From the IMG/VR virus record IMGVR_UViG_2568526312_000010: a stretch of 64,000 nucleotides of DNA; one strand, written 5' to 3'. Positions 9,001 through 12,000 of this stretch are shown one piece after another. Source of the DNA: a virus. Lineage: Duplodnaviria; Heunggongvirae; Uroviricota; Caudoviricetes. How positions within the stretch are numbered: the first letter of the stretch is position 1; each line of letters begins with the position of its first letter. The position numbers were made by a program.

Positions 9001-12000
9001 TTCCGTCACATCAAGCGCACTTGCTAAATCTTCCGTCGTGACATCAATGTGACCACGTAGTGACACGCCGTGACATGTCGTGACATTTCGTGACGCGCTC
9101 ACCAGAAGATGGATATACACTGCCATCACTGTTGCGATTGGCTGTCCTGATACCCTGGCAATCGTTCGCCACTTGGGGTCATTTGGCATGTCATGCCACA
9201 ATCTGAGCCAGGCATTAGCCATACTCACCTCTTCTGATACCGAACTTTACCCTCGAACATCCGGAAGAAATCCGGCATGAATATTGTTGGTCAATGCACG
9301 ACAACAGCATTACCAGGCTGACCCCCACTGTTAGTCAGGGTGCCCCAGGCGATCGCCGCTGCGACAAAATCATCCACATCTTTCACCAGCCGATCCCTCC
9401 GTTCGACGATCTCACGGTAATATTCAGAGCTGTGACTGCGCATACGGGCCACCAGCAGAGGCGGCATTGCCTTTTCGATCGCCGGTAACAGAGCCTGCAT
9501 TTTTTCAACTGCATCAGGGGTGTCTTTCTCTATCCAGCGGAAAATTTTCTGGGTATTGCGAGCCAGGGCTTCCGGATGGCTGTCGTCGTACAGTTCAGGA
9601 AACGTCATACCCAACTCAAAATAAGCCTGGGTTATTCCAGCTGCCGGAACTTTTTCGCCATCAGGACGCGCCCAGGCATTCATCGCCATGCGGATGTGTT
9701 CATGCTTGATTTTCATGAATCCCCCCTTGGTTAGAAGGCGGATTATGATCAGAATCGGGAATGACAACCGTCGGTATGTGTAACTCATATTTGAGCGCCC
9801 CGGCAGTGACTGCCTGAATTAGCAACGCCCATTTCCACGGAACGTCTTCCCCCCACATGCTGACTGTGGTTTTTGACGTTCCTAGAGCGGCGGCTGTTTT
9901 AACAACTCCGCCAAAATAGCCTAATACTTCTGATTTTTTCATGAGTCGCTCCATAAAACTGAACGCCAAAAGTTTAATAATCAAAACCAAAGAAAGTCAA
10001 GAAACAAAACCATCTGTGTTTTAAAATCAAAACATGAACAAGCAAACAATATCTGAACGCATAACCCAACGTATGCATGCGCTAAACTTGAAAGGCAAAG
10101 ACCTTGTCAATGCCACTGGCGCATCAAAAGGCTCCGTAAGTCAATGGATGAACGGTGGAGGAGCGCCGTCCTCGCGTTACATAAGTTCACTGGCAAAGAT
10201 ATTGAAAGTAAACGAAAATTGGCTTCTTAATGGAGGAGAGTTAAATACAGGTGATTCGCTTGATCTATCTTTACCGCCGATAAAAACGGTTCCGCTACTA
10301 TCACTTCAGCAGGCAGCAAGCTGGAGTGATTATATGAAAAATTCCTCAATAACCTCTTGTGTGCAGCTTGTCGGAGAAATCCCGGCCAATACCTTTGCTG
10401 TTGTTCTAGAGAGTGACAGTATGTCGACATCTGGTGGTGGAGTTTCCATCCCAAATGGTTCAACAGTTTTTGTTGATCCCGATCGAATCGTACAACCAGG
10501 AAATATTGTCCTTGCCTTACCCAAAGGGACCACAACGCCTGTCATTCGCAAACTGGAGATAGAAGGGCCGGATATTCTTTTAGTCCCCACGAATCCTCGC
10601 TACCCTTCAATTATGCTGGATGATCTATCTTGCATATTGGGAGTATGCTTTAAAATTCAACAAGATATTTAACCAACCTCATCTATTTGATTAACTGTAT
10701 GCCATCGTAGTGATGGCGTAACAGCTGCCTGCTTAAAATGTTTTGATAAAAAAACATTGACCTTAAATGTTCGTTTTTCTAAACTTCATTCATTCCCTCA
10801 CCCCGCCCCACAGAATGCAGGGCAATACTTCGAGTTACCAGGCAGTGGTCAGGGGTTAAGTAGCCAGCCCGAGGCGTAAGAACATGACGGCAGGGTTCAA
10901 CTTTAATAACTATGCAGCAGGTTTTTGTTCCGCTACCCCGGCGTTAAGGGGAAATGAGGTCAACATGGATACGCTCAATCTTGGCAACAACGAATCTCTG
11001 GTATGTGGCGTGTTCCCCAACCAGGACGGTACGTTCACCGCGATGACGTATACCAAAAGCAAAACGTTTAAAACTGAAGCTGGCGCGCGTCGCTGGTTAG
11101 CCAGAAACACTGACTGATGAGGTTGACGATGGAATTTAAAGATTTACCTCCTTCAATCCAGGAGATTGCAGCACACACACTTCGTCATCGTCTGAACGAA
11201 CTTGAATTGGAATCGGTAACGAAAAAAGACACTGATAATATGGCTCGTAATGTGCGCGATGCGTTTACCGGATTGTATTTCTGTGCGTCTATAAATAAAC
11301 ACGACTCAGAGAGTGTGGCAAATAAAATTGCAGAAACGACAGCGCAAAACATCAATACGAAACCAACGGAAGAAGAAATTGATCAGTTTGCTCATGATGC
11401 TGGTTTAAAAAACAAGAAAGAAAAATCGCCATATGCGGGGAACATGTTTGTTTATGACAATCTCATCAGAATTCGTGGCGAAATTCCGGCGGAATACCTG
11501 GCAAGAGTCCATCAGGCATTGCTTAAAAATTTGGAAACAGAATTATTTGATGGCAACACTAACGGTTTCTTCATGGTATCAGGCCTTGAGAAAGACTGGG
11601 ATGCAGAAAAACGCTGGAATGTTGCTACATGGTTATTCAGTAACAGAGCCGCTGCACTGGAAGCTTCGGCATGTATTTGCGGCCTGTTCTTAACAGACCA
11701 CAAATATAATCTGGATGTGTACAGTTATATTTACGCTGAACACGGTCCACTCTGGATTGACTGGTAATTATAAGGAAACACCAGCAGGGCCGCGGCGACC
11801 AACAGAACGATTAAAATCAATAATGCCATTATAAAGGACATTATTTAATTTATCGTCGAATGCTGATTCTGTGAGCCTCAACTCTGAATGAGTTTTTAAT
11901 AACCCTGATTGCCTGAGTTGATTTACCAGGCATTCAATCTGTTTTTCAATAAGCGGATTTCTTTTTTTGTTTGGCATTTTATCCTCCATTGAGGTTCTGG

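Follow-up and report, generated by a model that had tools for sequence, protein, structure and literature searches.

In the 64,000-nucleotide (nt) stretch of DNA analyzed here (IMG/VR record IMGVR_UViG_2568526312_000010; "the window"), which derives from Escherichia coli O157:H7 and carries two tandem lambdoid prophages, P1 and P2, the region downstream of the cI-type repressor gene of P1 contains a ydfA-like open reading frame (ORF) followed by two convergent ORFs of 212 and 69 amino acids (aa). These genes are real, but judging from their sequence context they appear to lie in the repressed early (dicBF) operon of the prophage and not in a slot expressed in the lysogen. Our leading reading, held with slightly less than even confidence, is that the two ORFs form a replaceable cassette (11117 to ~12035) in a dicBF-type operon of a cryptic lambdoid prophage, driven from an equivalent of the early-left promoter (PL), and that the C-terminal domain (C-domain) of the 212-aa protein and the 69-aa protein are cognate partners.

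The evidence for a partnership comes from the linkage of the two genes. In all 74 IMG/VR loci retrieved by the 69-aa protein, the C-domain was encoded next to it on the opposite strand, with the two stop codons abutting. Conversely, 77 loci were retrieved by the C-domain, and the 69-aa gene was present on the opposite strand in 71 of the 73 that had room for it, with abutting stop codons in 70. One of the two exceptions was a truncated copy, and the other (locus L149) carried an unrelated antisense gene of 211 aa in place of the 69-aa gene. The 211-aa protein (L149, 3526-4161, minus strand) contains a coiled-coil region and CxxC…CxxC motifs. Across the loci, the C-domain and the 69-aa protein diverged together, whereas identity in the N-terminal domain (N-domain) of the forward protein spanned 45% to 100%, so that recombination evidently breaks the protein between its N- and C-domains. 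One Salmonella prophage encoded the C-domain as a stand-alone ORF, which still faced the 69-aa gene tail-to-tail and was followed by a separate gene for the N-domain, again with an antisense ORF of its own. Salmonella prophages of the int-repressor-cox type encoded a 217- to 220-aa homologue of the 212-aa protein (33% identity) as well as a counterpart of the 69-aa protein (~50% identity), whose genes overlapped tail-to-tail by 53 nt. The pair of C-domain and 69-aa protein was intact in both E. coli and Salmonella, as was a second pair consisting of a 112/119-aa forward protein and a 64-aa antisense protein.

The 69-aa ORF is a real protein-coding gene. Its frame is under purifying selection, with a ratio of nonsynonymous (dN) to synonymous (dS) substitution rates of 0.1 to 0.27 at dS values of 0.2 to 0.65 across lineages, and the Salmonella homologues keep its length and the motifs IEKQIEC, SGLLK, and GRRGPAG, with synonymous sites being saturated. 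An earlier note on this DNA had described the ORF as convergent and preceded by a strong ribosome-binding site (RBS), and a GGAGG was indeed present at 11987-11983, 5 nt before the ATG. Its stop codon directly adjoins that of the 212-aa ORF, with zero gap. The encoded protein is basic (isoelectric point [pI], 9.7) and hydrophilic (maximum Kyte-Doolittle 19-residue window, 0.22; grand average of hydropathy, -0.53). An AlphaFold2 model (mean predicted local distance difference test [pLDDT] score, 82.9) consisted of two long helices and a disordered GRRGPAG tail, and Foldseek comparison of this model with the Protein Data Bank (PDB) revealed no analogue. In our searches, the protein was confined to Escherichia and Salmonella, and a profile search against one genome per species found nothing. 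The ORF pair as a whole is also more than a chance arrangement, as indicated by RefSeq annotation, by assignment to PHROG families, by the dN/dS of the 69-aa frame, and by its distribution: many E. coli O157:H7 chromosomes contained the region 10700-12100 without a single difference (100% identity), and at least 80% of this 1.4-kb stretch was present in ~565 of 5426 complete E. coli genomes.

For the 212-aa protein, two starts are possible. The earlier note had proposed that the gene is translationally coupled to ydfA through a TGATG; this sequence was found (11115-11119), but the ORF beginning at its ATG (11117), which overlaps the ydfA stop codon, encodes 216 aa. The 212-aa form starts at ATG 11129, which is preceded by a GAGG 6 nt upstream (11119-11122), is the RefSeq start, and has been kept in the different lineages. 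Salmonella retains MELKDLP but has ACG in place of the upstream ATG. With the start at 11129, ydfA and the 212-aa gene are separated by 11 nt. The protein is acidic (pI 5.2) and consists of a helical N-domain (aa 1 to ~58), an acidic linker, and a C-domain with a beta-beta-alpha-beta-beta-alpha-beta order (aa ~100 to 200). Its AlphaFold2 model had a mean pLDDT of 72.7, with values of 76 to 90 for the C-domain. Neither the 212-aa nor the 69-aa protein contains a hydrophobic or transmembrane segment, and both are predicted to be soluble.

The earlier note had recognized no domain in the 212-aa ORF, and profile hidden Markov model (HMM), PDB, and fold searches revealed no known domain in either protein. 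Pfam, NCBIfam, and PADLOC returned zero matches for both (PADLOC-DB v2 HMMs at E<=1), profile searches of the PDB with both returned nothing below E=0.1, and comparison of the 212-aa model with viral structures by Foldseek gave nothing below E=0.001. In PHROGs, both proteins fell solely into families of unknown function; the 212-aa protein matched PHROG 2151 (1.8e-147) and shares its N terminus with PHROGs 1363, 9419, 6937, and 33007. When 1.8 billion representatives were searched exhaustively with HMMER, without an index, only 35 relatives of the 212-aa protein were obtained, all of unknown function. Most of these matched residues 1 to ~55 alone and had unrelated C termini, and two Salmonella proteins (P0139 and P0143) shared the C-terminal 100 residues. 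Among isolated-phage genomes, the N-domain alone was found, in phage Evi. The N-domain thus recurs in many short early proteins and was joined to at least 8 C-terminal types, which is the pattern of a constant N terminus with a variable C terminus. In the family and fold searches, the C-domain was not recognizable as a toxin such as a nuclease, deaminase, or pore former.

The assignment of the pair to a dicBF-type operon follows from its surroundings. DNA homology to prophage Qin of E. coli K-12 extended from ~35 nt upstream of ydfA through the end of ydfA, was replaced from 11117 to ~12035 by a block unrelated to ydfB-ydfC of Qin, and then resumed as near-identity through the DicF precursor region and dicB. 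Since the flanks are homologous and the middle is unrelated, the gene pair constitutes a cassette that replaces exactly ydfB-ydfC. As in Qin, ydfA is promoter proximal and is followed, in the same orientation, by DicF, dicB, and ydfD. In K-12, the dicBF operon begins at ydfA, DicA represses the promoter located upstream of this gene, and the operon is silent in the laboratory; its forced expression is toxic, chiefly via dicB (PMC5069750). The gene order of P1, as obtained from the RefSeq annotation of strain TR01 and from Pfam scans, was as follows, with all positions referring to the window:

9700-9942, minus strand: cro-like gene (P22_Cro family), divergent from cI (Pfam P22_Cro, E=1.7e-15; RefSeq, Cro/CI family regulator).
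10016-10035, no strand assigned: operator-like palindrome GTGTTTT-N6-AAAACAT between cI and cro, overlapping the cI start codon, with one mismatch to ATGTTTT-N6-AAAACAT.
10034-10672, plus strand: cI-type repressor, 212 aa, with a helix-turn-helix (HTH) domain and an S24 self-cleaving peptidase domain (Pfam Peptidase_S24, 8.2e-13; HTH_3, 2.4e-4).
10738-10757, no strand assigned: perfect operator palindrome ATGTTTTGATAAAAAAACAT, putative equivalent of the left operator (OL), abutting the -35 hexamer, zero mismatches.
10757-10785, plus strand: predicted early-left promoter, PL equivalent, TTGACC-17-TAAACT (promoter scan).
10792-10964, plus strand: leader of the early-left transcript, common to P1, P2, and locus L008 (alignment).
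10965-11117, plus strand: ydfA (DUF1391), 50 aa, first gene of the operon (Pfam DUF1391, E=3.6e-30; 88% identical to K-12 YdfA).
11129-11767, plus strand: 212-aa ORF, PHROG 2151, with N-terminal helical domain, acidic linker, and C-terminal domain.
11768-11977, minus strand: 69-aa ORF (p69), PHROG 4274, basic helical hairpin, tail-to-tail with the 212-aa ORF.
11978-12067, minus strand: three-hairpin 5' leader of the 69-aa ORF (pairing and compensatory changes).
12072-12100, minus strand: candidate promoter for the 69-aa ORF, TTTTCA-17-TAAACT (8/12 match, read by eye, below the scan threshold).
12316-12367, plus strand: DicF small RNA (Rfam RF00039, 75 bits versus a gathering score of 48, E=9.5e-16).
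12542-12730, plus strand: dicB, cell division inhibitor (RefSeq; tblastn versus K-12, 67% identity).
12727-12915, plus strand: ydfD (DUF1482; annotated in K-12 as "lysis protein") (Pfam DUF1482, 2.9e-15).

Beyond ydfD, a truncated recE and then an integrase fragment follow. The spacer between dicF and dicB (12365-12574) gave a subthreshold Rfam match to STnc100 (34.7 bits versus a gathering score of 47).

All three ORFs of the earlier note were thus found where it had placed them, and it was also right in calling the first gene ydfA-like, the upstream gene cI-type, and the pair co-oriented with and downstream of this repressor gene. It had suggested from this arrangement that the pair occupies a lysogen-expressed slot like that of rexAB or sieB, and here the spacer between cI and ydfA argues otherwise. 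This spacer of 292 nt contains the sigma-70-like promoter and, abutting it, the perfect palindrome ATGTTTT-N6-AAAACAT. The sole other good copy of this palindrome in the 64 kb lies between cI and cro, and by chance only ~5e-4 exact copies would be expected in 64 kb on both strands. In P1, P2, and L008, which represents a third immunity type, the promoter is located at an equal distance upstream of a common leader of ~170 nt; the promoter region itself changes with the immunity type, and the surrounding immunity sequence is otherwise unrelated. Such a layout is what a PL/OL region is expected to look like. Genes of the rexAB type would lie between cI and OL/PL and would be cotranscribed with cI. 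Here, the predicted PL and OL are located between cI and ydfA, the common PL leader precedes ydfA, and the locus is syntenic with the dicBF operon that DicA represses; the slot is therefore not of the rexAB kind.

Several further observations were made in this region. The cI start codon (10034) has no RBS and lies inside the operator palindrome (10016-10037), suggesting that cI mRNA may be leaderless, as is that from lambda PRM. RefSeq annotates just the C-terminal 112 aa of the cI repressor in strain TR01. An in-frame extension upstream of ydfA (MTAGFNFNNYAAGFCSATPALRGN; 10884-10964 and 58653-58724) is conserved in P1, P2, and L008 and is retained in P2 despite the missing ydfA; some gene calls use the resulting long ydfA form (76 to 78 aa). 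The early-left leader was also considered as a structured RNA, an idea that was rejected because its fold stability is not unusual (z=0.49).

The earlier note had further argued that a known toxin-antitoxin operon occupies the same slot in P2. P2 corresponds to CP-933P, and its toxin-antitoxin genes are those of paaR2-paaA2-parE2. PaaR2 is a CI analogue, paaA2-parE2 are cotranscribed with it, and the PaaR2-repressed promoter PL933P lies beyond parE2 (PMC8630535). Accordingly, relB/parE of P2 (57971-58442) was found within the repressor operon, upstream of the common PL leader (from ~58650). Since the P2 toxin-antitoxin genes and the P1 pair lie on opposite sides of PL, the same-slot argument fails. 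In P2, an antisense ORF of 68 aa (58873-59079, minus strand), encoding a zinc-ribbon protein of the ECs_2282 family, lies entirely within a forward 118-aa ORF (58738-59094, plus strand). Of these two ORFs, RefSeq annotates the antisense one, and the record of phage Evi annotates the forward one.

A leader of ~90 nt (12067-11978, minus strand) that folds into three hairpins precedes the 69-aa ORF and every other antisense ORF of this kind. In 17 distinct sequences, 92.9% of the cells of the predicted helices were paired, compared with 35 to 44% when the partners were slid against each other, and compensatory changes on both sides were found in four pairs. The invariant G-U pairs of the leader can form in the minus-strand RNA alone. 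In helix 3, positions 12013-12008 pair with 11989-11984 and thereby cover most of the GGAGG; the RBS was paired in most minimum-free-energy folds, and a strong RBS was retained in all lineages. From a weak candidate promoter (12100-12072), transcripts would begin at the first hairpin. A minus-strand promoter reported by the scan (12005-11976) was dropped, as its -10 hexamer overlaps the start codon of the 69-aa ORF. The leader was also found without an ORF behind it, in K-12 Qin (locus L002, ~4040-4135) and in P2 (window ~59385-59480). A "hypothetical" antisense ORF after ydfC of P2, considered as a partner gene, was rejected, since what had been called an ORF there is the leader region.

A census unselected for the pair covered 80 loci retrieved by ydfA, with the leader within reach in 48 of them. 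In 47 of these 48, ydfA was followed by an ORF with an N-domain of the MEFKDLP type, the exception (L213) reading MEFKDLS. The census comprised at least 8 cassette types, most with a distinct antisense ORF of 57 to 104 aa that started 47 to 56 nt from the leader core. A Salmonella prophage of the cox type (L161, 2700-4800) contained the convergent pairs 217/64 aa, 65/59 aa, and 64/73 aa in tandem, together with two copies of the leader motif, which suggests repeated cassette insertion.

Our model combines these features as follows. The HTH-S24 repressor would occupy the palindrome (10738-10757) and thereby silence the promoter (10757-10785), thus keeping ydfA, the 212-aa gene, dicF, dicB, and ydfD off; we infer repression by cI from the sequence and from Qin and CP-933P, which are homologous systems. 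Upon loss of the repressor, the operon would fire, ydfA and the 212-aa protein would be translated from near-adjacent cistrons, and the early transcript would continue, antisense through the 69-aa gene, into dicF-dicB-ydfD. Because the repressor is of the HTH-S24 type instead of DicA, induction of P1 should follow the SOS response, unlike that of Qin. Transcription of the 69-aa gene would run the other way and depend on signals of its own, with the three-hairpin leader masking the RBS of the gene; the pairing and compensatory changes establish the structure of this leader, and its promoter and regulation are predicted. With signals of its own on the opposite strand, expression of the 69-aa gene should be uncoupled from, and probably opposed by, transcription of the early operon. 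Being antisense to a repressed operon, the gene could be expressed in the lysogen, and independent expression, probably in this state, is the arrangement we consider likely. Finally, the acidic C-domain and the basic 69-aa protein would bind each other, one of them neutralizing or tuning the other. The conserved linkage points to such a physical partnership, and the opposite charges, the predicted solubility of both proteins, and the absence of transmembrane segments are compatible with it.

Taken further, the three-hairpin element with its masked RBS may constitute an antisense "expression platform" in the repressed early operons of enterobacterial lambdoid and cox-type prophages, with exchangeable small-protein cargo of at least 10 unrelated families that would probably be expressed in lysogens. 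A new effector/antidote pair would then be formed by the 69-aa protein and the C-domain, with one partner made by the lysogen and the other only upon induction or infection. Such a pair would serve to exclude superinfecting phages, to confer self-immunity on the prophage, or to act as a safety catch against the toxicity of early genes. We regard this extended proposal as possible but doubtful.

Several observations weigh against a cognate partnership. In the lineage of L149 and L213, the 212-aa gene is kept and the 69-aa gene is deleted or replaced, so that the 69-aa protein is not indispensable. In the ydfA-anchored census, some identical forward proteins were accompanied by different antisense ORFs or by none, indicating that one-to-one pairing is not the rule of this slot. 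As the sampled loci were mostly from near-identical O157 strains, the counts given above (74 and 77 loci) overstate the number of independent observations. Moreover, adjacency between conserved recombination flanks would lead to co-inheritance even without functional coupling. The promoter scan, in addition, reported no promoter able to serve the 69-aa ORF, the sole candidate being the one with an 8/12 match read by eye.

The strongest alternative builds on these points and holds that the two genes function independently of each other as accessory genes, linked only by their adjacency between the conserved flanks. The 212-aa protein would be a variable early protein, acting in host takeover or antidefense, and the 69-aa gene would be a "moron" cargo on a common antisense platform. 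This would explain why the three-hairpin element, which here lies upstream of dicF on the opposite strand, is elsewhere found in front of at least 10 unrelated antisense ORFs (57 to 104 aa), why identical forward proteins occur with a differing or absent antisense ORF (classes 706 versus 727; 411/640/653), and why the 69-aa gene is missing from L149 and L213 despite the presence of the 212-aa gene. Genes expressed in the lysogen, such as lambda bor, are classically found antisense to a repressed operon, and the orientation of the 69-aa gene fits this pattern. Independence does not readily account, however, for a linkage of C-domain and 69-aa protein that persists at 33% and 50% identity in another prophage type and with a stand-alone C-domain, for the absence of any locus, among 74, with the 69-aa gene but no C-domain (0/74), or for the likewise conserved second pair of 112/119-aa and 64-aa proteins in E. 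coli and Salmonella. We give this alternative a real but minor chance.

Far less probable is the model of the earlier note, in which ydfA and the 212-aa gene are cotranscribed with cI in the lysogen as an exclusion, defense, or toxin module. It is in line with the co-orientation with cI, with the lack of a convincing intrinsic terminator between cI and ydfA in our scan, and with the fact that the proteins are unknown and variable among prophages, as conflict genes often are. It conflicts with the promoter and operator that separate cI from ydfA, with the synteny to the DicA-repressed dicBF operon with toxic dicB and dicF downstream, with the occurrence of the pair beside unrelated immunity regions (in L008 behind an inserted HigBA), with the zero matches in PADLOC, and with the different slot of the P2 toxin-antitoxin genes.

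Lambda OOP RNA controls cII through 3' overlap. A mainly RNA-level role of this kind, in which convergent transcription insulates dicF-dicB-ydfD from leaky early transcription or the 3' overlap controls the 212-aa mRNA and the peptide is secondary, would suit a leader conserved even without an ORF (K-12 Qin and P2), 3' ends that meet without overlap in E. coli and share 53 nt in Salmonella, and the toxic genes downstream (PMC5069750), but is similarly improbable in view of the purifying selection on the 69-aa frame, the protein motifs kept at 50% identity despite saturated synonymous sites, and the strong RBS in all lineages.

The dicBF operon itself is already known. To judge from the literature that could be searched, no description exists of the 212-aa or 69-aa protein, of the linkage between them, of the modular N-domain family, or of the antisense leader. 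The cassette occurs in about one in ten complete E. coli genomes, O157:H7 among them, beside dicF and dicB, which influence cell division, metabolism, phage resistance, and virulence of enterohemorrhagic E. coli. If the pairing is functional, it would represent a new soluble two-protein prophage module with its halves on opposite expression programs, and the recurrent structured antisense platform would be a place to seek small lysogen-expressed conflict proteins that catalogues of defense systems miss. For annotation, the locus illustrates that co-orientation downstream of cI does not imply lysogen expression in dicBF-type prophages.

Among known systems, the P1 operon shares with K-12 Qin dicBF (ydfA-ydfB-ydfC-dicF-dicB-ydfD) the first gene ydfA, the long untranslated region with DicF, dicB, and ydfD, the position beside the immunity repressor, and DNA homology on both cassette flanks. 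It differs in carrying the 212-aa gene and the antisense 69-aa gene in place of ydfB-ydfC and in its repressor, which is of the HTH-S24 cI type in P1 and DicA in Qin. Like paaR2-paaA2-parE2 of the same strain, the pair is a prophage accessory module beside an immunity repressor; the CP-933P genes, however, encode members of the recognized RelB/ParE families, are cotranscribed with the repressor, and lie upstream of PL, whereas the P1 pair is convergent, without family match, and downstream of PL. The P1 genes also differ from type II toxin-antitoxin systems in general, being convergent and without match to a toxin or antitoxin family, PDB sequence, or fold, and from type I systems in that the 69-aa protein is hydrophilic and not a small hydrophobic toxin.

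With polymorphic toxin/immunity cassettes (contact-dependent inhibition systems, Rhs proteins, and phage MuF toxins), the locus has in common a constant N-domain, swappable C termini, a small linked gene, and conserved flanks that permit cassette exchange. Unlike in these cassettes, a secretion or packaging domain and a recognizable toxin fold are absent, the partner gene is convergent instead of codirectional, and the pairing of C terminus and partner is not strictly one-to-one.

Pore-forming colicin operons consist of a LexA-controlled colicin gene, a convergent immunity gene with its own promoter, and a downstream lysis gene. The colicin immunity partner is a membrane protein, in contrast to the soluble and basic 69-aa protein, and the 212-aa protein has no colicin domains; moreover, the pair resides in a prophage and not on a plasmid. 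With its putatively repressor-controlled forward gene, a small opposite-strand gene directly downstream that would have its own signals, and predicted read-through into a lysis or division-inhibition gene, the layout of the P1 locus nevertheless most closely resembles that of the pore-forming colicin operons.

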